Of a DNA stretch of 64,000 nucleotides, positions 21,716 through 50,771 are shown one piece after another. Below the pieces are notes generated by a model. That model made no database searches and was not told where the DNA came from. It saw nothing but the letters and a program-made list of their open reading frames with translations. The stretch's first letter is position 1. Every line of letters starts with the position of its first letter. The translations under genes were made by a program, and so were the position numbers. Source of the DNA: Minisyncoccota bacterium (lineage in GTDB: Bacteria; Patescibacteriota; Minisyncoccia; Phycocordibacterales; CAJBRS01); contig JADGRH010000003.1 in assembly GCA_017881075.1 (NCBI GenBank), positions 64,682-128,681 of the forward strand. Reading direction: 5' to 3'.

Positions 21716-22811
21716 TTCTTGGAAAAAACTATCTGATTGGTATTGGCGATATGAGCGACATCTCTCCTCGCTCGGTCTTATTGGTGGTTTCCTTTTTGAT
21801 ATTTTTACTTTGACCAGAATAGATCACGCTCTGGAAAATATTTGGGTGGGATTCCATCTATTGGTGGCGGCCTTCGGAATCTTAATGCTTAATCTTTATG
21901 AAGAAGGGAAGTTAAAAGCGAAAGTGCCGGGGCGTGCACATTTTTGGTGGACTTTTGTCATTCAATTTGCTTTCGGAGGATTATTCAGTGTCTTTTTAGT
22001 TTTTTATTCCCGAAGTACTTCCTTTTTCGCCAGCTGGCCATTTCTTTTACTACTGGCTCTGAATTTCCTGGCCAATGAACGCCTGCGCAAGCATTATGTT
22101 CGCACCGGTTTTCAAATGGCAATGCTTTTTCTCGGCATCTTCTTTTACGATATCTACATTGTGCCTATCATCTTCAAATCAATCTCGTCGGGAATCTTTA
22201 TTATCAGCGGCGTGGTCAGCTTGATGATAATGGGAATTTTTATTTTTATTCTTTCTCTGCTTACACCCAATCGGATCTGGAAAGAAAAATGGATATTGGT
22301 CTGGAGTATCGGCGGATCCTTCCTTCTGATCAATCTTTTATATTTCACCCATCTTATTCCACCCATCCCGCTCTCGCTAAAAGAGGCGGGGGTTTATCAT
22401 TTAGTTTCTAAGGATGCTAGCGGAACGGGCTACAATGTTTTAGAAGAATATCAGAACGGCCAGTCTTGGTTCCACTATTTTCTGCCGGCGGACACTATTC
22501 ATTTAGTGGTAGGCCAGCCAGCTTATGTCTATAGCGCCGTCTTTGCTCCTACCAATTTTGCTACTTCCATTGTGCACCGATGGCAATATTACTCCGATAC
22601 GGAAAAGAAATGGCAGACGGTAAGCCTTATTCCGCTCACAATTATCGGAGGCCGTGACGGGGGTTTCCGAACCTTTTCGTTAAAGACTAATCTCGCTCCA
22701 GGCAAATGGAGGGTGAGTGTGGAAACTACGACGGGGCAGGTGATAGGCCGGCTCGACTTTTTGGTCGAGCCGGCCGAATTTACCCCGCTCTTGAGGGAAG
22801 TGGCTAGATAG
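21708..22811 (+). CDS. membrane protein with C-terminal DUF2914-like domain
   Basis: ATG at 21708 overlaps the upstream stop (ATGTCTAA). Multi-TM N-terminal part; C-terminus ...GKWRVSVETTTGQVIGRLDFLV is typical of DUF2914. Confidence 0.6.
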   Translation: MSNSWKKLSDWYWRYERHLSSLGLIGGFLFDIFTLTRIDHALENIWVGFHLLVAAFGILMLNLYEEGKLKAKVPGRAHFWWTFVIQFAFGGLFSVFLVFYSRSTSFFASWPFLLLLALNFLANERLRKHYVRTGFQMAMLFLGIFFYDIYIVPIIFKSISSGIFIISGVVSLMIMGIFIFILSLLTPNRIWKEKWILVWSIGGSFLLINLLYFTHLIPPIPLSLKEAGVYHLVSKDASGTGYNVLEEYQNGQSWFHYFLPADTIHLVVGQPAYVYSAVFAPTNFATSIVHRWQYYSDTEKKWQTVSLIPLTIIGGRDGGFRTFSLKTNLAPGKWRVSVETTTGQVIGRLDFLVEPAEFTPLLREVAR

Positions 22812-30057: not shown

Positions 30058-30457
30058 TCTTCTTGAATCGGGTAATTGCTCCGCCACCTAAAAAGGGCGG
30101 GGAGGAAAGTCCGAACACAGGCCCTTCACCAAAATTGGTGAAGGGAAGAGTAGCGGGTAATACCCGTCTGGAGCAATCCACGAGGTGCGAACAGAGACGA
30201 ACCGGTTAAGTCCGGGTGAAACGGCTAAATCCTTACTTCTGTGCAAGGCCGCGCGCCAATTTTGTCCGCTAGAGGCGGTTACAAAATTGAGCGTCCCGAG
30301 ATTTTCGAGGGATTGATCCTTCGACAAGCTCAGGGCACTCAATCTTGCAGCCACCTGCAGTGGGCAAGATTGGTGAGTGCCGCTTGACTCCGAGAGTAAT
30401 CGAGGAGCTAGATAAATAATTATCGATAACAGAATTCGGCTTATAGATTCAAGAAGA
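30058..30457 (+). ncRNA. rnpB: RNase P RNA (bacterial type A)
   Basis: GAGGAAAGTCCGAACAC (CR-I) and ACAGAATTCGGCTTATAG (CR-V). P1 pairing tcttcttgaatc (30058-) / gattcaagaaga (-30457). Promoter TTGTCT-16-TATAAT at 30026-30053. Confidence 0.9.
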
Positions 30458-30463
30458 CAAATC

Positions 30464-30494
30464 AAAAGCCTCCGCCTAACGGCGGAGGCTTTTG
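30464..30494 (+). terminator. intrinsic terminator after rnpB
   Basis: aaaagcctccgcc-taac-ggcggaggctttt. Confidence 0.85.
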
Positions 30495-30496
30495 CT

Positions 30497-30596
30497 ATTT
30501 GCATCGTCTTTTCAAGATGTTATAATAAATGAAAGCTAATGAAAGAATTTGCATCGTCTTTTCAAAATGTTATAATAAATGAAAGCTAATGGAAAA
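30497..30596 (+). repeat. 2 x 50-bp tandem duplication of promoter/start region
   Basis: atttgcatcgtcttttcaaRatgttataataaatgaaagctaatgRaaRa twice; includes an extended -10 tgttataat. Only copy 2 opens into the long ORF. Confidence 0.85.
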
Positions 30597-34757: not shown

Positions 34758-36584
34758 ATGGACTTGGAAAGAATCAGAAATTTCAGTATCATTGCTCATA
34801 TTGACCACGGAAAATCGACGCTGGCGGACCGTATGCTGGAGATCACTCATACTATAGAAAAGCGCAAAATGATGGATCAGGTGCTGGATAATATGGAGCT
34901 TGAGCGGGAGAAGGGAATCACCATCAAGATGCGGCCGGTGAGGATGATTTACACCACCTCCAACCCCCTCCTTGATCAAAGAGGGGGCACATCCTACATC
35001 TTAAATCTTATTGACACCCCCGGCCACATCGATTTCTCCTACGAAGTGTCGCGGGCCCTGAAAGCCGTGGAGGGCTCTATTTTGCTCGTAGATGCCACAC
35101 AGGGCGTCCAGGCGCAGACCCTTACAACCTTAGGCATGGCTCGCGACCTTGGCCTTACCATCATCCCAGTGCTCTCAAAAGTGGATTCACCACTGGCTCG
35201 AATTAAGGAGGTAAAAGAGGAAGTGTCGCGACTATTAGATTGTCTACAGGAAAGCATTTTAGAGACTTCCGGTAAAACAGGTCAAGGGGTTGACAACTTA
35301 CTTCAGGAAATCATTCGAAGAGTGCCGCCACCTCACGAATTATTGAAGTCAGACTTCGATAAATCTAATTTTCGTGCTCTAGTTTTCGATTTCCAGTACT
35401 CAAATCATAAGGGGGTAATTGTTTACGTGCGAGTTTTGGATGGACAGGTGGCTAAGAATGCCGAGCTTTTATTTACTGTGGCGAAAGAAAAGTTTTTTGC
35501 ACTAGAAGTGGGGATTTTTAAGCCGGAAGAGTCGCCGGCGGCGGTCTTAGCCGCCGGCGAGATTGGCTATATTGTCACCGGCATTAAAAAGCCAGGCATT
35601 GCTTCGGTTGGAGACACTGTCACTCTTCTGAAAAAACCACTGCCGGCTCTTTCTGGTTACGAGCGACCAGCTCCGGTGGTTTGGGCATCAATTTATCCAG
35701 AAGATGCTGATGATTTTGATTTGCTTCGACAGGCGCTTGGGCGTCTTCGCCTGTCGGACTCCTCCTTTTCATATGAAGAGGAATCATCAGGCTCGCTGGG
35801 CCGCGGCTTTAGATGCGGTTTTCTTGGACTGTTGCATCTTGAAATTATCACGGAGCGATTGAAGCGAGAATTTCGTTTGCAACTAATTATCGCTACCCCT
35901 TCTATTACCTATGAGGTGACGTATAAGAATGGGAAGAAGGCGATTGTTTATTCACCATCATTATTTCCCGAACAGAACGAAGTGGAAAGCGTCTTGGAAC
36001 CGTGGATGAAGCTACAAATCCTTACCCCATCATTATATTTAGGGAAACTATCCCAGCTTCTCTATGACCACGAAGGAGAAATGGATCATTCAGAAACATT
36101 TGGTGATGGCAGAACTTCGCTCTCTGTTAAGATTCCGCTTCGGGAACTGATGCGGAACTTTTTCGATGAGTTAAAAAGCGTTTCTTCCGGCTTCGCCTCA
36201 CTCTCATACGAATTTGAAAGTATGCGTCCGGCCGAAGTGGTGCGGCTGGATATTTTGGTAGCAGATGAGCCGGTGGAGGCTTTTACCAGAGTGGTATCGG
36301 TGAGGAGAGTACAGGAAGAGGCGGAGAAAGCGGTGGAAAAACTCCACTCCATTTTGCCTCGACAAATGTTTGTAACTAAGATTCAAGGAAAGGCCCTTGG
36401 CAGAATTCTCTCATCTGCAACCCTATCAGCTATGAAGAAAGATGTTACCCAGCACATGTATGGAGGAGATATCACTCGAAAGATGAAGCTGCGGGAAAAA
36501 CAAAAAAAAGGAAAGAAAAAAATGAAGGCGCGCGGCAAGGTCAATATTCCGCACGAGACGTTTTTGAAGATGATGAAAAGCTAG
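34758..36584 (+). CDS. lepA: translation elongation factor 4 (LepA)
   Basis: IRNFSIIAHIDHGKSTLADR, DTPGHIDF; LepA-specific C-terminal domain and Lys-rich tail. Confidence 0.95.
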   Translation: MDLERIRNFSIIAHIDHGKSTLADRMLEITHTIEKRKMMDQVLDNMELEREKGITIKMRPVRMIYTTSNPLLDQRGGTSYILNLIDTPGHIDFSYEVSRALKAVEGSILLVDATQGVQAQTLTTLGMARDLGLTIIPVLSKVDSPLARIKEVKEEVSRLLDCLQESILETSGKTGQGVDNLLQEIIRRVPPPHELLKSDFDKSNFRALVFDFQYSNHKGVIVYVRVLDGQVAKNAELLFTVAKEKFFALEVGIFKPEESPAAVLAAGEIGYIVTGIKKPGIASVGDTVTLLKKPLPALSGYERPAPVVWASIYPEDADDFDLLRQALGRLRLSDSSFSYEEESSGSLGRGFRCGFLGLLHLEIITERLKREFRLQLIIATPSITYEVTYKNGKKAIVYSPSLFPEQNEVESVLEPWMKLQILTPSLYLGKLSQLLYDHEGEMDHSETFGDGRTSLSVKIPLRELMRNFFDELKSVSSGFASLSYEFESMRPAEVVRLDILVADEPVEAFTRVVSVRRVQEEAEKAVEKLHSILPRQMFVTKIQGKALGRILSSATLSAMKKDVTQHMYGGDITRKMKLREKQKKGKKKMKARGKVNIPHETFLKMMKS

Positions 36585-36843: not shown

Positions 36844-37230
36844 ATGAGAGAATTTCAAGAAAGAAAAAGACTAAAAAGGCTCATCTACTCTAAACCAGTC
36901 CTAATTTTCCTATTTATCTTACTGGTCTTAGTGATTGACGGGACATGGAAAATCTACCAGAAAGAAAGGGAGAGCCGAGCCAATCTGGCGCGAGTGGAAA
37001 ATCAGCTAACGACTTTAAAAGAAAGAAGCGGCAATCTTTCGTCTGACGTGACTAGGTTAAAAACGGAGCAGGGAATGGAAGAGGAGATTCGCAGTAAATA
37101 TGAGGTTTCAAAACCTGGGGAACAGCTCCTAGTCATTGTGGATAAAGATGCGGCGGCGACTACGTCGCCGCCGCAGAACCTCTGGGAGCACTGGTGGTCC
37201 AGTTTTACCAATCTTTTTAAGCGGAATTAG
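36844..37230 (+). CDS. septum formation initiator family protein (FtsB/DivIC-like)
   Basis: N-terminal TM, then a coiled coil and EEEIRSKYEVSKPGEQLLVIVD, typical of the family. Confidence 0.65.
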   Translation: MREFQERKRLKRLIYSKPVLIFLFILLVLVIDGTWKIYQKERESRANLARVENQLTTLKERSGNLSSDVTRLKTEQGMEEEIRSKYEVSKPGEQLLVIVDKDAAATTSPPQNLWEHWWSSFTNLFKRN

Positions 37231-37291
37231 TTTAGTGGTAGAACTAGTGCTTCCCAAGCATTGGGCGGGAGTTCGATTCTCCCATTCCGCA
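37221..37291 (+). tRNA. tRNA-Gly (anticodon CCC)
   Basis: Acceptor GCGGAAT/ATTCCGC, anticodon loop TTCCCAA, T-arm GGGAG-TTCGATT-CTCCC; no encoded CCA. The 5' end overlaps the last 10 nt of the preceding CDS. Confidence 0.9.
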
Positions 37292-38697: not shown

Positions 38698-38769
38698 GCC
38701 CTCGTAGTTCAACGGATAGAACGGATCCGTCCTAAGGATTTGATGTCAGTTCGATTCTGGCCGGGGGCA
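38698..38769 (+). tRNA. tRNA-Arg (anticodon CCT)
   Basis: Acceptor GCCCTCG/CGGGGGC (one G-U), anticodon stem GATCC/GGATT with loop GTCCTAA, T-arm GTCAG-TTCGATT-CTGGC. Confidence 0.85.
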
Positions 38770-38778
38770 CTTTAAGTC

Positions 38779-39678
38779 ATGAATGAAATTCTTATAACTA
38801 AAGCTTCTAAAGATTACGAGCTTATTGATAGTGGAAAAGGGGAGAAACTGGAACGATACGGTCAGTTTGTTTTGCGTCGGCCGGATCCGCAGGCTCTTTG
38901 GCCTAGATTTTTAAATAAGGAAGTTTGGGAAAAGGCCGACGCCATTTTCGCCCCGCCTCGGGCGGGACAGGGTGGCGTCGGCAAACCGAGTTGGACATTA
39001 AAATCCGGCATTCCTAATAGCTGGCAGATTAATTTTGGCGGATTGAAATTTGTAATTAAACTGACAGCTTTCAAGCATACCGGTCTTTTTCCGGAGCAAC
39101 TGTCTAATTGGGAATGGATTGAGGAAAGAGTAAGGGCGGCCGCCGGAGGCACAGGCGGCCGCCAGTTGTCTATTCTCAATCTCTTCGGTTACACAGGCGG
39201 TGCAAGCCTCGCTGTCGCCAAAGCTGGTGCCTCTGTCACCCACGTGGATGGCTCTAAAAGCGCCATAACTTGGGCTAAAGGGAACGCCGAGGCCTCCGGC
39301 CTCGGCTCCGCCCCCATCCGCTGGATTCTCGACGATTGCCGCAAATTTCTAGAACGAGAGATAAAAAGAGGTAATCACTACGACGGCGTTATCATGGATC
39401 CGCCCGCCTTCGGCCATGGGCCAAATAAGGAGCTGTGGAAGATAGAGGACCATTTTTTAAAACTTTTAGAACTATCTTTTCAAGTTCTTTCGCTGAATCC
39501 CGCTTTCTTTTTGATTAACGGTTATGCTTCTGGATACTCGGCAGTAGCTTATGAAAATAATTTGAAAGTACTCGTAGATAAATTCGGCGGCAAAATTGAA
39601 AAAGGGGAACTCACCATCATGGAATCCACTGGTAAGCGCCTCTTACCTTGTGGCATTTTTGCCAGATGGGCTGATTAA
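38779..39678 (+). CDS. class I SAM-dependent methyltransferase (RlmI/RlmK-like)
   Basis: LNLFGYTGGASLAVAKAGA (motif I), VTHVDGSK, VIMDPPAFG (motif IV DPP). Confidence 0.7.
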   Translation: MNEILITKASKDYELIDSGKGEKLERYGQFVLRRPDPQALWPRFLNKEVWEKADAIFAPPRAGQGGVGKPSWTLKSGIPNSWQINFGGLKFVIKLTAFKHTGLFPEQLSNWEWIEERVRAAAGGTGGRQLSILNLFGYTGGASLAVAKAGASVTHVDGSKSAITWAKGNAEASGLGSAPIRWILDDCRKFLEREIKRGNHYDGVIMDPPAFGHGPNKELWKIEDHFLKLLELSFQVLSLNPAFFLINGYASGYSAVAYENNLKVLVDKFGGKIEKGELTIMESTGKRLLPCGIFARWAD

Positions 39679-39707: not shown

Positions 39708-39783
39708 GCCGGGGTAGCTCAGTTGGTAGAGCATGTGCCTGAAGAGCATGGGGTCGGCGGTTCAAGTCCGCCCCCCGGCACCA
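39708..39783 (+). tRNA. tRNA-Phe (anticodon GAA), CCA encoded
   Basis: GCCGGGGTAGCTCAGTTGGTAGAGC..., anticodon loop CTGAAGA, T-arm GGCGG-TTCAAGT-CCGCC, ...CCCCGGCACCA. Confidence 0.9.
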
Positions 39784-40573: not shown

Positions 40574-41296
40574 TTAAGAATTAGTTTTTTTGATACCTTT
40601 AATTTTTTCAAACACCAGAATCAATATAATGATAGAAAGCCAAACTAAGCCAAAAATGATTATCAGACTGTGTCCACTATCGTTTATTATAGAAAAATTA
40701 AAGAGAGCATGCAAGATGATTGCTAGGGCAATACCACATAGAAGGAAAAGCCTTTTCTGCCACTTATTTTTATAAAAAGCAAAGGCAATAAAGACTCCTA
40801 TGATGGCTGAAGAAATAACATGGAGAAGATTGGCTCCGACAAAACGAAGATTACCGGTAATAATTCCTCTTAGATCATCATTGGACAAGAAAGGTTGAAT
40901 AAGGAAGAAAATGTTTTCAAGAGCGGCGAATCCTAGGGCGCTTGTAATAAGGTAAATAACGCAATCAATAGGCTCGTCGTCATGTTTTGTTTTTAAAGCG
41001 CTCCAAGAAGCCGCCCAGTATTTCAAAAGTTCCTCAACAACAGCAAATAAAAGGAAGGCGATAATAGCTGTTTCTTCAAAGTGAACGCTAATGAAGTGCT
41101 CAAAAGGAAGAGCTATTACCACCGCAATCATACCGGCGATGAAGGACCGGATGATTATCCGTTTCGGTTCAGGATGAAGCTTGTCTTCCTGGAGCCAGAA
41201 CCAAAGCCAAATGATGGAGGGAAGAATACCGGCGCCGACAGCGTAAATTAAAGCCCTGAAGATCATATAATTAAGTCGAAACTGGCCATTTTGCAA
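40574..41296 (-). CDS. PrsW-family intramembrane protease
   Basis: VVEELLKY, FAALENIFF, HALFN motifs in a multi-TM protein. Confidence 0.8.
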   Translation of the reverse strand: MQNGQFRLNYMIFRALIYAVGAGILPSIIWLWFWLQEDKLHPEPKRIIIRSFIAGMIAVVIALPFEHFISVHFEETAIIAFLLFAVVEELLKYWAASWSALKTKHDDEPIDCVIYLITSALGFAALENIFFLIQPFLSNDDLRGIITGNLRFVGANLLHVISSAIIGVFIAFAFYKNKWQKRLFLLCGIALAIILHALFNFSIINDSGHSLIIIFGLVWLSIIILILVFEKIKGIKKTNS

Positions 41297-43325
41297 CCAT
41301 TAATAAACCCGACTCCTGATTCGGAACGAGTGACCAAATCTCTTCGGTGATGAATGGCATGAAGGGGTGAAGCAGTTTCAGAATGATATTTAAAGTATAA
41401 CCCAAAACTTGAGCAGTCGTTTCGGTGTCTTGTGTCTTAGAATACTCAATATATTTATCAGCGAAATCATGCCAAATAAAATCATACAGGTCGTGAGAGG
41501 CTTTACCGAACTGGTAAGTTTCAATATTCTGACTAACGAAAGCCCCGACCTCGTCCAATCGGGTCAAAAGTTCATGATCTTCGTCACTACTAATATTACC
41601 GGGTAATTTGACACCGATTTTGTCACCAGTCTTTTCTAAAACATAGCGACTGATATTCCAAAGCTTGTTGCTGAACTTCTTTCCCATAGCAATATTATCT
41701 TCGCTGAATCGGATCTCTTGTCCACCGAATTCCTGGTAGATCAGTCCAAAACGAACGGCGTCGGCCCCATACTTATCAATGAAAGTTACTGGATCAAGCC
41801 CAGTGCCGAGAGATTTACTCATTCTTTTACCGTCCTTAGTCAGAATGGTGGCGTGGATAAGCGCATCTTTAAAAGGTTTCTCGTTCATGAATTCCAGACC
41901 GGAGAAAATCATTCGAGACATCCACAAATGCATGATATCTCGAGCTGAAGTAACAAAGGCCGTTGGATAAAAAGTGTCTAAATCCTTTGTTTTCTCTGGC
42001 CAACCTAAAGCGGCAAAAGGCCAGAGAGCGGCGGAAAACCAGGTATCAAAAGTATCCTCACTCCCTTCAATTGGAATTTTATGACCCCACCAAATCTGTC
42101 GGGAAATACACCAGTCTCTAACGTTTCCAAGCCAATCAAGCGCTACTCCTTTCCATCTATCGGGATAATAATTAACCTCGCTGGATTCAATGGCCTTAAT
42201 GGCTTTTTCGGCGAGTGGTTTCATTTTCAAAAACCATTGTTTGGAGAGCAGGGGTTCGATAGTGGATCTGCAGCGGTAACATTTTGCCACGTTGTGAGTG
42301 AAATCTTCCTCTTTCTCTATCAGATTTAATCTTCTTAATTCATCTAGGATTTTTTCTCGAGCGGCGGCGATTTTAAGCCCATCGAAATCGCCGCCGATAT
42401 TTATAATCTTTCCGATCTCGTCAACGACTTTGTGATAGGGAAGTTTATTTTGATCAGCCACCTGACTGTCAAAATAATCGTGAGCCGGAGTGATTTTCAC
42501 CGCGCCGGTGCCGAATTCTTTATCAATCAATCTGTCGGTAATAATTGGAATCTTTCTATTAAGGATCGGCAAAACTGCCGTTTTGCCGATCATTTTTTTA
42601 TATCGTTCGTCATTCGGATTGACTGCGACAGCGCTGTCACCAAGCATTGTTTCCGGCCGAGTAGTGGCGACGGTAATAAATTCAACGGAATCTTCAATCG
42701 GATATTTAATATAGTAAAGTTTTGATTTCTCCTCCTGATATTCCAATTCCAGATCAGATAGGGCCGTTTGGTCTTTAATACACCAATTAATCACACGCTC
42801 TCCTTGATATATTAAACCCTTCTCGTGATAATGATTGAAAGCGGTTTTAACCGCCTGCTGATATTTCTCGTCCATGGTAAATCGGAGCCGTGACCAATCA
42901 AGAGAACAGCCCAATGATTTTAGTTGTTCTAGAATAGTACTGCCGTATTTTTCTCTCCATTCCCAAATTTTCTCAATAAATTTTTCTTTACCGAGATCAT
43001 GACGAGTCAGCCCCTGTTTTTTCAGATCTTTTTCCACAACATTTTGAGTGGCAATGCCAGCGTGGTCGGTGCCAGGGACCCACAATGTTTTGAAACCGCG
43101 CATGCGGTGATATCGTATTAAGACGTCAGAGACGGTATTCTCCAGCGCGTGACCCATGTGGAGCGAGCCGGTAATGTTGGGGGGAGCGATCATGATGGTG
43201 TAGGGCTTCTTTCGCTCGCCCGGCAGGTTATCCGGATTAAAAAAACCGCTCTTTTCCCAGAGCGAATAGATGCGGGACTCAGTGTCCTTTGGATCGTAAG
43301 GTTTAAGCAGTTTTTCGGGAGTCAT
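41271..43325 (-). CDS. valS: valine--tRNA ligase (short form)
   Basis: PPNITGSLHMGHA (HIGH), WVPGTDHAGIATQ, RMSKSLG (KMSKS). ATG at 43325 (MTPEKLLKPYDP...). Lacks the long C-terminal coiled coil. Confidence 0.9.
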   Translation of the reverse strand: MTPEKLLKPYDPKDTESRIYSLWEKSGFFNPDNLPGERKKPYTIMIAPPNITGSLHMGHALENTVSDVLIRYHRMRGFKTLWVPGTDHAGIATQNVVEKDLKKQGLTRHDLGKEKFIEKIWEWREKYGSTILEQLKSLGCSLDWSRLRFTMDEKYQQAVKTAFNHYHEKGLIYQGERVINWCIKDQTALSDLELEYQEEKSKLYYIKYPIEDSVEFITVATTRPETMLGDSAVAVNPNDERYKKMIGKTAVLPILNRKIPIITDRLIDKEFGTGAVKITPAHDYFDSQVADQNKLPYHKVVDEIGKIINIGGDFDGLKIAAAREKILDELRRLNLIEKEEDFTHNVAKCYRCRSTIEPLLSKQWFLKMKPLAEKAIKAIESSEVNYYPDRWKGVALDWLGNVRDWCISRQIWWGHKIPIEGSEDTFDTWFSAALWPFAALGWPEKTKDLDTFYPTAFVTSARDIMHLWMSRMIFSGLEFMNEKPFKDALIHATILTKDGKRMSKSLGTGLDPVTFIDKYGADAVRFGLIYQEFGGQEIRFSEDNIAMGKKFSNKLWNISRYVLEKTGDKIGVKLPGNISSDEDHELLTRLDEVGAFVSQNIETYQFGKASHDLYDFIWHDFADKYIEYSKTQDTETTAQVLGYTLNIILKLLHPFMPFITEEIWSLVPNQESGLLMVAKWPVST

Positions 43326-43352
43326 TGGGATAAATATTAACATAAAAGCAAA

Positions 43353-43387: not shown

Positions 43388-43539
43388 AAAAAGGAGAAGG
43401 TTCTAACGTCCGGACCTAAGACCCAAAGGTGCTCAATGGGAAAATGATTCGTCCCTTTGCGGCTGGCCATAACTCTCAATCAACTTTTCTATTTAGAATT
43501 ATAGCATATCGGTGAAAAAAGTCAAGGTTAGAATAGGTC

Positions 43540-44793
43540 TTATTTTAAGGCTAGATTTCCATTAGCTCCGAAATCGGATTTCGGGTTTTTGTCACTTAAA
43601 TAATTGAAATAACCAGCCATGGCGATCATAATGGCGTTGTCGGTGGAGAGGTGGGAGTCGGGAATTAGGAGTTGGGTGTCAGGAGAAGCAGCGATTAAAT
43701 CTTGAAAGGAGCGGCGGAGGTGGGTATTGGCGATTACACCTCCGCCGACTATTAGAGTTTTAATATCAAATTCTTCAATGGCTCGTTTGGTTTTGGTAAT
43801 CAATACTTCAGTGACCGAATCTTCAAATTCTCTGGCCATTTTTGCTTTCCATTCTGGATCTGATTTTTCTTTGTCGGTCATTTTTTTAATTGTGTAAAGG
43901 ACGGCAGTTTTCAATCCGGAAAAAGAGAAATCGTAATCGTTTGATTTGATCATTGGTCTGGGCAAAACAAAGTTGCAGAGGTTTGACCTCTGCAAGTGAT
44001 CTGCAGAGGTCAGACCTCTGCAACGCTCTAAATCGGCCAATTTTGAGATTTCAGGCCCGCCAGGGTAGGGAAGATCCAGCATTCTAGCCACCTTATCAAA
44101 AGCTTCTCCAACCGCGTCATCACGAGTTTGACCAATGATTTTGTATTTTTTCCATGCTTCAATTAAGACTAGCTCAGTATGGCCACCGCTAATGAGAAGT
44201 GCTAAAGCTGGAAAAGAAAAGCTGACAGTTGGTAACTGATAGCTTTCAGCTTTAGATTTTTTTGGTAATAAAGCTGACATAATGTGTCCTTCCATGTGAT
44301 TAGTAGGAATGACAGGCAGATCCCAAACGAATCCCAACGCCTTGGCAAAATTAATACCGACCCAAAGTGCTGGCTCAAGACCGGGGCCGGTGGTGACGGC
44401 AATGGCTTCAATATCCGGCTTAGGAATTGTCGGAATAAATTTAAGAAATTGTTCGAGTAATTCAGGCTCGCGTTCTAGGATCTTTTTCAAACCCCCTCCA
44501 ACTCCCCCTTGTCTAAGGGGGAGAGGAAGCCCCCCCTCCTCAAACGAGGAGGGGGTAGGGGGTGGTGTTGAACCCAATTTATCTAATAACTCTTTTAACA
44601 ACGGAATCAGATTTCTAGAATGCTCTCTCTTCGCCATCATCGGATACACTCCGCCATATTTTTCATGAATTTTAGTCTGGGAATTAAGCGCTTCAGCAAT
44701 CACTTTAAATTGAGGTCGCTCAAAACCGCCATTGGATTCCACGATAGCGAGCGCTGTTTCATCACAGCTAGTTTCAATACCTAGGATTTTCAT
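43540..44793 (-). CDS. tsaD: tRNA N6-adenosine threonylcarbamoyltransferase TsaD, with two insertions
   Basis: MKILGIETSCDETALAIV, NHMEGHI, GGVIAN. 417 aa vs a typical ~340. Confidence 0.9.
   Translation of the reverse strand: MKILGIETSCDETALAIVESNGGFERPQFKVIAEALNSQTKIHEKYGGVYPMMAKREHSRNLIPLLKELLDKLGSTPPPTPSSFEEGGLPLPLRQGGVGGGLKKILEREPELLEQFLKFIPTIPKPDIEAIAVTTGPGLEPALWVGINFAKALGFVWDLPVIPTNHMEGHIMSALLPKKSKAESYQLPTVSFSFPALALLISGGHTELVLIEAWKKYKIIGQTRDDAVGEAFDKVARMLDLPYPGGPEISKLADLERCRGLTSADHLQRSNLCNFVLPRPMIKSNDYDFSFSGLKTAVLYTIKKMTDKEKSDPEWKAKMAREFEDSVTEVLITKTKRAIEEFDIKTLIVGGGVIANTHLRRSFQDLIAASPDTQLLIPDSHLSTDNAIMIAMAGYFNYLSDKNPKSDFGANGNLALK
43973..44022. repeat. two tandem palindromes inside the tsaD CDS
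   Basis: ttgcagaggtttgacctctgcaa (43973-43995) and tgcagaggtcagacctctgca (44002-44022); they encode part of ...CRGLTSADHLQRSNLCN. Confidence 0.8.
44502..44554. repeat. two GC-rich perfect hairpins inside the tsaD CDS
   Basis: ctccccctt-gtct-aagggggag (44502-44523) and ccccctcctc-aaac-gaggaggggg (44531-44554); they encode PSSFEEGGLPLPLRQGG. Confidence 0.8.
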
Positions 44794-44816
44794 TTGCTTG
44801 CCATGAGTTTATCGAA

Positions 44817-44892
44817 TGGTGGGCGATAGAGGACTCGAACCTCTGGCATCAACAACGTCAATGTTGCGCTCTACCAGCTGAGCTAATCGCCC
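44817..44892 (-). tRNA. tRNA-Val (anticodon GAC), CCA encoded
   Basis: Reverse complement GGGCGATTAGCTCAGCTGGTAGAGCGCAACATTGACGTTGTTG...GGTTCGAGTCC...ATCGCCCACCA. Confidence 0.9.
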
Positions 44893-44931
44893 GTTCGTTT
44901 AATCTATCATTTTAACAATTTGTAAACAATG

Positions 44932-45018
44932 CGGAGGAGAGAGGATTTGAACCTCTGATGCGGTTTCCCACATGCCGGTTTTCGAAACCGGTGCCTTCAA
45001 CCACTCAGCCACTCCTCC
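44932..45018 (-). tRNA. tRNA-Ser (anticodon CGA), type II
   Basis: Reverse complement GGAGGAGTGGCTGAGTGGTTGAAGGCA-CCGGT-TTCGAAA-ACCGG, long variable arm, GGTTCAAATCC T-loop. Confidence 0.9.
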
Positions 45019-45046: not shown

Positions 45047-45118
45047 GGCCCTATCGTCTAACGGTTAGGACATCGCCTTTTCAAGGCGGTAATCCGGGTT
45101 CGATTCCCGGTAGGGTCA
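45047..45118 (+). tRNA. tRNA-Glu (anticodon TTC)
   Basis: GGCCCTATCGTCTAACGGTTAGGAC, anticodon loop TTTTCAA, T-arm CCGGG-TTCGATT-CCCGG, TAGGGTCA. Confidence 0.9.
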
Positions 45119-49847: not shown

Positions 49848-50771
49848 CTATTTTGTATGTAGATGGACATAAATGTCCTCGAGAGCCTTGACGGCGTCGC
49901 CGGCGGCGATGTTGTTTTGGTGATAGAGACCATCGGTGCAGTCACCGGCGGCCCAGATGCCAGGCGAGCTAGTCTGCTGGGTGCGAGGGTCCACAATGAT
50001 TTGGCCGTAAGTATTTTGAGCTACCAGACCCTTGGTAAAATCAGTTGAGGGAATAAGGCCAATTTCTACGAAAACGCCGGTGACCGAAAGCTCGGTATTT
50101 TCTTTCGTCTCTCTATTTTGATAGACAATTGATTTAACAAATTTTTCACCTTTTACTTCCACCAGATCGGCATTTAAAACGGCATGCATTTTTGGATTGG
50201 AGAGTACTTTTTTAACAGTGACGGGATCAGCTCGAAACTCCTCGCTTCGATTGAGAAGGGTGACGCTTTTGCAATAAGCTAAAAGTTGAGCGGCTGTCTC
50301 AAATGCGGCATTGCCGCCGCCTATCACCACCACGTCCTGATCGGAAAAGAGTGGGCCGTCGCAGGAGGCGCAATAAGTAATGCCTTTATTCTCAAACTCC
50401 ACAGCGCCGGGAACAATCAATTTTCGGCGAGTACTGCCGGCAGTAAGAAGAACGGTCTTGCCTTCAAAATCACCCTCGGAAGTTTTAACCATGAAACCGT
50501 CAGAAGTTTTTTTAATAGAATTAACATATCCACCTTCTTTAATATCCACTGTGTCGCCGGCGTAAGCTTTTAGGTGCTGGCGAAAATTATCAGCCAGCGC
50601 CAATCCTTTAATTGAAATGGTCCCTATCCAATTTTGGATGTCTTCAGAAACATTACTCTGTCCGCCGATCTCTTTAGCCACTAGAACAGTCTTCAGGCGC
50701 TTGCGCGCCGCATATACTCCGGCGGCGACCCCTCCGGGGCCGCCGCCAATAATTATTAAATCGTAAATCAC
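49848..50771 (-). CDS. trxB: thioredoxin-disulfide reductase
   Basis: IIIGGGPGG, redox CASCDG, second GGGNAA NADPH site, AAGDCTD. Confidence 0.9.
   Translation of the reverse strand: MIYDLIIIGGGPGGVAAGVYAARKRLKTVLVAKEIGGQSNVSEDIQNWIGTISIKGLALADNFRQHLKAYAGDTVDIKEGGYVNSIKKTSDGFMVKTSEGDFEGKTVLLTAGSTRRKLIVPGAVEFENKGITYCASCDGPLFSDQDVVVIGGGNAAFETAAQLLAYCKSVTLLNRSEEFRADPVTVKKVLSNPKMHAVLNADLVEVKGEKFVKSIVYQNRETKENTELSVTGVFVEIGLIPSTDFTKGLVAQNTYGQIIVDPRTQQTSSPGIWAAGDCTDGLYHQNNIAAGDAVKALEDIYVHLHTK

Follow-up and report, generated by a model that had tools for sequence, protein, structure and literature searches.

Within the 64,000-nt stretch of a Minisyncoccota bacterium genome analysed here (the window; assembly GCA_017881075.1, contig JADGRH010000003.1, positions 64,682 to 128,681), the gene tsaD contains four palindromic DNA hairpins that are translated as part of its protein. 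The hairpins form two pairs: an AT-richer one, made of a palindrome that we call F1, and a GC-rich one. The features are given below by window position, with a strand for the gene only.

43540 to 44793, minus strand: tsaD (tRNA N6-adenosine threonylcarbamoyltransferase), a 417-aa open reading frame (ORF) that hosts both hairpin insertions
43972 to 44024: inverted doublet of the F1 palindrome TGCAGAGGT-NNN-ACCTCTGCA, resembling a REPIN (a doublet of repetitive extragenic palindromes [REPs]); encodes aa 258 to 274, CRGLTSADHLQRSNLCN
43973 to 43995: F1 copy 1, TTGCAGAGGT-ttg-ACCTCTGCAA, stem 10, loop TTG
44002 to 44022: F1 copy 2, TGCAGAGGTC-a-GACCTCTGCA, stem 10, loop A (CAG centre)
44491 to 44563: GC-rich composite, an outer C-tract/G-tract stem around two tetraloop hairpins
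44502 to 44523: GC hairpin CTCCCCCTT-gtct-AAGGGGGAG, stem 9
44532 to 44555: GC hairpin CCCCCTCCTC-aaac-GAGGAGGGGG, stem 10

The ORF matched the Pfam TsaD family (E = 4.3e-75), and its product matched solved bacterial TsaD structures in the PDB with E values down to 1e-66. The invariant metal-site and catalytic residues H166, H170, and D385 were intact in an alignment of 31 TsaD sequences, and, judged from its sequence, the ORF is a bona fide tsaD.

Hairpins within the tsaD reading frame

The original prediction, made from the DNA letters alone, had described four hairpins in a frame that stays open, with a GC-rich pair standing out from the gene. All four hairpins were recovered, and all lie in frame within the tsaD ORF and are translated in the 417-aa protein. 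The occurrence of the hairpins was far beyond chance, since dinucleotide shuffles of the window gave 0.00 to 0.02 expected matches per hairpin pattern. Across the window, 11 perfect hairpins with a stem of at least 10 were found versus 0.7 expected, and 5 of these (some overlapping) lie inside tsaD. The GC content of the GC hairpin pair was 64 to 71%, compared to 44% for the gene.

The arms of the F1 doublet (43972 to 43994 and 44002 to 44024; 23 nt each) are 96% complementary, and the minimum free energy RNA fold of 43972 to 44024 was one long hairpin (-43.5 kcal/mol, z -9.2). The two copies are perhaps best read as an inverted doublet, their orientation being given by the loop bases only. 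On the mRNA strand, 44491 to 44563 folded into a three-way structure (-55.4 kcal/mol, z -3.2). The GC hairpin pair encodes aa 80 to 98 (TPSSFEEGGLPLPLRQGGV), and the composite reaches a few residues beyond on each side. The G-rich arms of the hairpins contain a Shine-Dalgarno-like GGAGG that is masked by pairing. The F1 palindrome can encode the peptides CRG[LQ]TSA, LQRS[DN]LC, and AEV[RK]PLQ; the first two both occur in the TsaD of the window because its F1 copies lie 28 nt apart and are thus read in different frames. An intrinsic terminator was ruled out for the tsaD hairpins, which are ORF internal and have no T-run. Rfam searches of the whole window and four F1 loci at gathering thresholds gave nothing at the hairpins, and permissive E values (43400 to 44900) returned only sub-threshold chance matches to miRNA and snoRNA families.

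The TsaD of the window is about 80 aa longer than that of Escherichia coli. The excess of about 75 aa noted in the original prediction therefore holds, but its attribution to the hairpins is right only in part: they encode only about 36 of the approximately 80 aa, and the rest is, on the evidence of the alignment, a Patescibacteria-typical extension that is not hairpin derived. The 120 best TsaD homologues measured 379 to 474 aa (mostly 380 to 430 aa), and every lineage-bearing source name among them was Candidatus or Patescibacteria. The 31-sequence alignment revealed an extra helix segment, ILEREPELLEQFLxxIPTIEKP, that is conserved in all sequences and preceded by a linker whose length is hypervariable; two further loops vary in this way, the second situated before LPRPM and the third after HMEGH. 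The hairpin pairs occupy the first and second of these three loops, and the closest relatives (P0002 and P0003; 65 to 66% identity) lack them, having shorter, unrelated residues at both positions. This agrees with the proposal that the segments are insertions. An AlphaFold2 model built on the same alignment reached a mean predicted local distance difference test score (pLDDT) of 87 and a predicted template modeling score (pTM) of 0.86. Low confidence was confined to aa 80 to 96 and 181 to 188 (pLDDT below 50) and aa 261 to 270 (pLDDT of 51). The first and last of these segments are the hairpin peptides, and aa 181 to 188 belong to the third variable loop, which is free of hairpins. Since the low scores are limited to variable loops on a confident core, the inserts are predicted to behave as disordered loops that leave the fold intact, and the model places both hairpin peptides in the kind of surface loop that had been expected.

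The F1 family and Y1 transposase genes

We defined F1, the AT-richer pair of tsaD, as the 21-nt palindrome TGCAGAGGT-YNR-ACCTCTGCA and searched the GTDB species, each represented by a single genome, for TGCAGAGGT-N(1-7)-ACCTCTGCA. The scan yielded at least 115 stretches, compared with about 9 sites expected per loop length from simple odds. The stretches that were fetched included 80 exact F1 21-mers with a 3-nt loop. About 75 of them lay in metagenome-assembled genomes (MAGs) of Patescibacteria or in unlabelled multi-copy MAGs; five were single matches in genomes from outside the candidate phyla radiation (CPR), which corresponds to chance level. More than 40 copies were spread over 14 contigs of MAG117, a Kaiserbacteria MAG and several Saccharibacteria MAGs held several copies each, and the named MAGs with F1 also included Taylorbacteria and Paceibacterota. 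Viral contigs gave one F1 match only and thus no sign of a phage vector. Further copies of the TGCAGAGG hairpin, which the original prediction had proposed to look for in the genome, were thus plentiful in the genomes of other Patescibacteria, both within genes and between them; within the 64-kb window, no further copy was present.

The flanks of the F1 copies are unrelated, so that the element is the palindrome alone. Its loops fit Y-N-R (CTA/TAG, CTG/CAG, CGG/CCG, and TTA). Around F1, no target-site motif or duplication was found beyond a Y at position -1 and an R at position +21, both of which lengthen the stem, and an A-rich 5′ side, for which the arrays of a single genome may be responsible. 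The majority of copies are intergenic or lie in arrays, with no long frame across them. Many form tandem arrays with a period of 28 to 51 nt or perfect 22-bp inverted doublets (clear ones in locus L058; retrieved loci carry L numbers), and some resemble bidirectional terminators, with A/T-run flanks at some copies, e.g., in L040. A minority lie in frame in genes, and three gene identities were confirmed by Pfam, as follows.

tRNA/rRNA U5-methyltransferase: peptide IAEVRPLQ
Mur ligase: peptide GAEVKPLQ, beside a degenerate copy
UvrC: peptide HAEVRPLQ

In L058, which belongs to MAG117, a 236-aa ORF (794 to 1504) lies between two F1 clusters, with seven copies 60 to 304 nt upstream and five copies 30 to 141 nt downstream. 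This ORF matched Pfam Y1_Tnp (IS200-like) with 25.5 bits, above the curated cutoff of 23, and showed a weak match to the NCBIfam REP-associated tyrosine transposase (RAYT) family; HUH (NHFHLLL) and Tyr (YVQVFNP) motifs are present. Homologues in L040, L074, L050, and L153 were located by tblastn, and five more loci were fetched via transposase-profile proteins, of which four (L201, L203, L204, and L205) were flanked by perfect hairpins of their own. The hairpins at these Y1 transposase genes were as follows.

L040 (Taylorbacteria): AATGTAGAGGTCAGACCTCTACATT 1 nt upstream and GTAGAGGTCTGACCTCTAC 7 nt downstream; exact F1 327 nt upstream
L074 (Kaiserbacteria): on the upstream side, F1 at 96 nt and a variant at 69 nt; on the downstream side, a variant at 218 nt
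L050 and L153: each gene flanked on either side by its own cognate perfect hairpins
L201: flanking hairpin TGAGCAAGG..CCTTGCTCA
L203: flanking hairpin TGACGAGG-ttgag-CCTCGTCA
L204: CTCGAGGT-tcg-ACCTCGAG at 26 nt on the upstream side, within the gene, and at 9 and 48 nt on the downstream side
L205: flanking hairpin TACGGAGGTT-t-AACCTCCGTA

F1 or a one-base variant thus flanks a Y1 gene in three genomes (L058, L040, and L074), and the core GAGGT-loop-ACCTC is common to F1 and most transposase-flanking hairpins. The cognate hairpin also occurs in frame inside the Y1 gene in four genomes (L058, 963 to 983; L050, 853 to 875; L204, 10164 to 10182; L205, 10656 to 10674). The Kaiserbacteria MAG MFD04540 contains at least two divergent transposase copies with different hairpins (L050 and L074). 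Y1_Tnp was matched by all six aligned transposase-like proteins (best E, 4e-10). A profile of the six gave a weak match to ISDra2 TnpA in the PDB (E = 0.09) with the HUH and Tyr motifs aligned; a PDB sequence search with one RAYT-like protein returned nothing. Profile searching of a protein database recovered at least 6,287 members at an E value of 1e-10 or lower, those listed being mostly 217 to 260 aa long. The lineage-named members of this clade were all Patescibacteria, and their annotation was only "transposase." Because a Y1 gene is flanked by F1 or its variants in related genomes and F1 also occurs alone elsewhere, we filed F1 as a REP-type element.

Several further observations concern F1-like sequences. 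Saccharibacteria copies (L056, 6047 and 5241; L081, 3220; L091, 3777; L103, 990) were repeatedly followed by (A)AAACTGGGGATAA; the element may be longer there, or a functional motif may lie next to it. In two other phyla, the TGCAGAGGT...ACCTCTGCA arms also make up the central part of longer palindromes present in multiple copies, e.g., GCTGAAGTGCGCGATT-TGCAGAGGTCAAGACCTCTGCA-AATCGCGCACTTCAGC; these loci are L020-L105 (Rubrobacteraceae MFD04850), L068/L080/L084 (Actinomycetota), and L065/L086/L088/L096/L114 (Myxococcales MAG-87), and the shared arms reflect either convergence or a common recognition motif. In L128, one ORF adjoining tsaD contains two perfect palindromes with stems of 20 to 21 bp (2121 to 2163 and 2284 to 2324), one of which is an F1-like inverted doublet, TGCGCAGGTCAGACCTGCG..CGCAGGTCTGACCTGCGCA.

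GC-rich hairpins, the tsaD hotspot, and other features of the window

The composite architecture of the GC-rich tsaD insertion, with two hairpins within an outer stem, recurs in the tsaD gene of L004 and in murB of L203, and single GC hairpins of a like type occur in the tsaD loops of L003, L143, and L150. The original prediction had also proposed a search for further GC-rich hairpins, and a like hairpin is inserted in lepA within the window.

L004 (P0012), tsaD: CCCCCTCTT-gaaa-AAGAGGGGG and CCCCCCTT-atgc-AAGGGGGG inside a AUCUUCCCC/GGGGAGAU stem, -46 kcal/mol
L203, murB: two hairpins inside AAUCUUCC/GGAAGA, -60 kcal/mol
Window, 34964 to 34987: GC hairpin CCCCCTCCTTGATCAAAGAGGGGG, in frame in lepA (34758 to 36584, plus strand), peptide NPLLDQRGG

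The lepA hairpin corresponds to a 7-aa insertion relative to Thermus thermophilus EF4 (5imq), between the GITIK and DTPGH motifs. Within approximately 568 kb of tsaD-centred CPR sequence (the window plus L120 to L160), four of the six GC-type hairpins lie in tsaD. The GC arms lack A and G on one side and T on the other. They are therefore stop free whatever the frame, which accounts for genes tolerating them. MAFFT alignment of the three low-complexity GC composites did not keep the hairpins in register. The GC class is most likely a small non-autonomous element, similar to miniature inverted-repeat transposable elements or Rickettsia palindromic elements (RPEs); we infer its mobility from recurrence across genes and genomes alone.

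Hairpin density was compared between 41 CPR-type tsaD loci (L120 to L160) and 39 loci with a shorter tsaD (L161 to L199) as non-CPR controls. These loci were drawn from metagenomes by protein similarity and not by hairpins, and the split was assigned by rank of identity and length of tsaD rather than by taxonomy. Perfect hairpins with a stem of at least 10 numbered 26.2 per 100 kb in the CPR loci (about 1.4 expected) versus 8.5 in the controls, and 39% versus 24% of them lay in long open frames. With a stem of at least 9, 35 hairpins were counted in 48 kb of CPR tsaD genes compared to 4 in 41 kb of non-CPR tsaD genes. The CPR tsaD hairpins cluster at the three variable loops. Among the CPR loci, hairpin sites per 100 kb numbered 45 in tsaD, 9.0 in other ORFs, and 77 in non-ORF DNA (binomial p of 1.5e-7). 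CPR tsaD is therefore a five-fold hotspot for intragenic perfect hairpins relative to other ORFs, for which the long disordered loops offer the simplest reason. Separately, the tsaD gene of L145 carries ATTCCCGC-NNNN-GCGGGAAT hairpins twice in different loops (221 to 240 and 455 to 474), and the same hairpin occurs once intergenically in L203 (13204 to 13223); this is another dispersed palindrome family.

The window contains further perfect GC-rich hairpins with stems of 9 to 12, together with RNA genes.

22746 to 22775: hairpin in a DUF2914 gene
35532 to 35560: hairpin in lepA
37149 to 37175: hairpin in a DivIC-like gene
39286 to 39306: hairpin in a methyltransferase gene
50721 to 50747: hairpin in a thioredoxin-reductase-like gene
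30060 to 30459: RNase P RNA, bacterial class A, 113 bits
573 to 659, 37221 to 37291, 38698 to 38769, 39708 to 39780, 44820 to 44892, 44932 to 45018, and 45047 to 45118: seven tRNA genes

The hairpins at 35532, 37149, 39286, and 50721 were rejected as further insertions, the Gly/Ala/Pro-rich segments that they encode being judged native from their peptide context and from E. coli sequences; alignment to a reference covered lepA residues 1 to 181 only. The segment encoded at 22746 to 22775 likewise looks native. GGGPGG (in GGGPGGVAA), for instance, is presumably an FAD-binding motif and thus looks native. The hairpins at 30122 and 30463 lie in no protein gene; the first is inside the RNase P RNA, and the second begins 4 nt past its end. 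A mechanical ORF at 30088 to 30504 (minus strand) overlaps this RNA and is probably no gene. Three of the seven tRNA genes lie directly upstream of tsaD. Just after the tRNA gene at 573 to 659, a 39-nt near-perfect palindrome, ATGTCCGAAACGGGGTGTC-g-GACACCTCGTTTCGGACAT, occupies 706 to 744; its GTC-N-GAC centre and ATGTCCGA motif are common to hairpins of other CPR tsaD genes (L127, L128, and L004).

Probable origin of the hairpins and comparison with known systems

We consider it probable (at about 0.68) that the tsaD hairpins represent two insertions, each of short palindromic repeat DNA into a disordered surface loop that permits changes in length, one of the REP-type element F1 and one of the GC-rich class. 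The sequence at 43972 to 44024 would be an inverted doublet of F1. By analogy with REP/REPIN-RAYT systems, a transposase would recognise the F1 hairpin on single-stranded DNA at replication forks, cut it, and re-join it at new sites without target duplication, and copies landing in genes would survive only in tolerant loops. Movement by such a transposase may be how the copies arrived in this genome. The approximately 73-nt GC composite at 44491 to 44563 would constitute a second insertion class. Both insertions may persist because they are in frame, stop free, and structurally harmless, i.e., neutral for TsaD.

Several points weigh against this interpretation. Beyond the two tsaD copies, the 64-kb window contains no further F1, and no Y1 transposase homologue was found in it by tblastn or by a six-frame hmmsearch whose profile was built from six CPR RAYT-like proteins. 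Among the orthologues compared, none offers a clean empty-site allele: the nearest shares only 66% identity, and the loops are not alignable base by base. One end of most REPs bears a conserved tetranucleotide, GTAG or CGTC (PMC3733652). F1, however, starts with TGCAG and has the head GCAG; only the RAYT-flanking L040 variant GTAGAGGTC has GTAG. No transposase was found beside GC-class hairpins, and this class has no enzyme association; its sequences are of low complexity, and similarity between copies is therefore weak evidence of homology. Finally, some perfect hairpins in CPR genes fall into conserved, non-inserted columns, as in the tsaD of L155 and in a class-I aminoacyl-tRNA synthetase gene of the window (41271 to 43343, minus strand). 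In the latter, a perfect palindrome with a 12-bp stem (42564 to 42591; GATCGGCAAAAC-tgcc-GTTTTGCCGATC) encodes IGKTAVLPI, which resembles the conserved valyl-tRNA synthetase motif of E. coli. A version with a 10-bp stem lies in L136 (4835 to 4860), about 0.8 kb downstream of tsaD, in a gene assumed to be the orthologous synthetase. These palindromes suggest in situ perfecting of quasi-palindromes, and a second, palindrome-forming process such as template switching thus probably also operates.

Such a process could by itself account for the tsaD hairpins, if intramolecular template switching or snap-back synthesis had made native, lineage-specific loops palindromic without the action of a mobile element. 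Among CPR tsaD hairpins, many are indeed unique sequences, some stand in columns of conserved length, the IGK..LPI motif is encoded by a perfect 10- to 12-bp palindrome in two genomes, and hairpin density is high throughout CPR loci. Formation in place is the main rival for the GC class. For the hairpins as a whole we regard it as unlikely, as it leaves unexplained both the identical 21-mers in many unrelated genomes and genes and the hairpins on both sides of Y1 transposase genes, and the GC composite recurs with a like architecture in different genes. The very stable predicted structures (-43.5 and -55.4 kcal/mol), the masked GGAGG in the G-rich arms, and the five-fold excess in tsaD over neighbouring genes would also suit selected functional elements. 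As folds in the mRNA, the hairpins could pause translation of tsaD or tune its translation or stability; alternatively, a dimeric DNA-binding protein could use them in the manner of an operator. Orthologous tsaD genes nevertheless differ in the sequence, number, and position of their hairpins, and many have none, no Rfam family matches, and F1 also occurs in unrelated genes and intergenic arrays, which renders selected function quite improbable.

An assembly or sequencing artefact has to be considered as well, given that the source is a metagenome assembly and that chimeric reads can yield palindromes. However, the independent Logan assembly of SRR10489828 gave a TsaD protein identical to the NCBI version, which makes an artefact unlikely; the open frame, the intact catalytic residues, and the recurrence of the same hairpin families in dozens of independent MAG projects render it extremely so. 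Membership in the RPE family is no easier to sustain. RPEs measure approximately 100 to 150 bp; they are not known from outside Rickettsia, and no transposase is known for them. The resemblance to RPEs noted in the original prediction stands as far as behaviour is concerned: selfish-looking palindromic DNA lies in frame in essential genes and is tolerated in surface-exposed segments. It does not extend to membership, since the units of 21 to 24 nt and the composites of 53 and 73 nt are too small, the host belongs to the Patescibacteria, and F1 has a Y1 transposase partner; we thus give an RPE identity hardly any credence.

If insertion of palindromic repeats is correct, some of the protein insertions of CPR/Patescibacteria that have lacked an explanation would have a concrete mechanism at the DNA level, and REP/RAYT biology would reach into a huge lineage of uncultivated organisms. 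It would also show that palindromes termed extragenic can undergo translation within essential genes, in the manner of RPEs in Rickettsia. The spurious-looking residues that they add to core proteins such as TsaD and LepA matter for MAG annotation and marker-gene phylogenomics, and the hairpins and arrays break assemblies, many RAYT contigs being only 1 to 2 kb long. A wider scenario, which we put forward tentatively and would not yet favour, is a phylum-wide Patescibacteria system of the REP/RAYT type in which thousands of approximately 230-aa Y1 transposases and their cognate GAGGT-loop-ACCTC hairpins, along with GC double-hairpins, are at work and the palindromes are routinely inserted and translated in housekeeping genes. 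Palindromic mobile DNA would then be a major source of lineage-specific loop insertions in CPR proteins, and tsaD would be a preferred sink, possibly with a function, e.g., translational tuning of the synthesis of N6-threonylcarbamoyladenosine (t6A). The literature was searched for REP, RAYT, or REPIN in Patescibacteria/CPR, for CPR inverted repeats or insertions, and for six F1 sequence variants as text; no paper was found. The transposase-hairpin association and the tsaD hotspot, both absent from the literature searched, are directly testable.

The sole literature match for palindromes or hairpins in Patescibacteria was TIGR-Tas, which was rejected for its variable spacers; neither TIGR nor CRISPR arrays fit, because the hairpins described here have identical spacers or none. 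GC clusters of yeast mitochondria and the double-hairpin elements of Allomyces and chytrid mitochondrial DNA are GC rich, sometimes nested or doubled, and found in frame. They may resemble our hairpins as GC-rich palindromes in an AT-richer genome, but they are organellar, and no sequence relationship is expected. With IS200/IS605 insertion sequences, F1 shares the transposase superfamily (Pfam Y1_Tnp) and the use of hairpin DNA signals. These insertion sequences, however, move as a unit with tnpA, whereas the hairpins occur alone and far from tnpA, as REPs do.

The closest parallel is the REP/REPIN-RAYT system, reportedly the subject of studies by Nunvar (2010), Bertels and Rainey (2011), and Ton-Hoang (2012). 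Its defining layout is a Y1 transposase with short palindromes on its flanks, the same palindromes being found by themselves at other genomic sites (PMC5581495; PMC3116915). F1 differs in its perfect rather than imperfect stems, in the frequency of tandem arrays, and in the substantial fraction of copies that are intragenic, in frame, and translated, even within the transposase gene. In addition, one 21-mer is found across several CPR classes, the host phylum is Patescibacteria, and the 64-kb window has no RAYT. On the side of likeness, F1 is a short palindromic unit of about 21 nt (21 to 23 nt, stem 10) that forms inverted doublets folding into long hairpins, is dispersed in many copies per genome in related MAGs, and shows no evident target duplication. 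In related genomes, copies stand on both sides of a Y1/HUH transposase gene of approximately 220 to 240 aa. With this structure and this genomic context, F1 is best filed as a new family of the REP/RAYT type.

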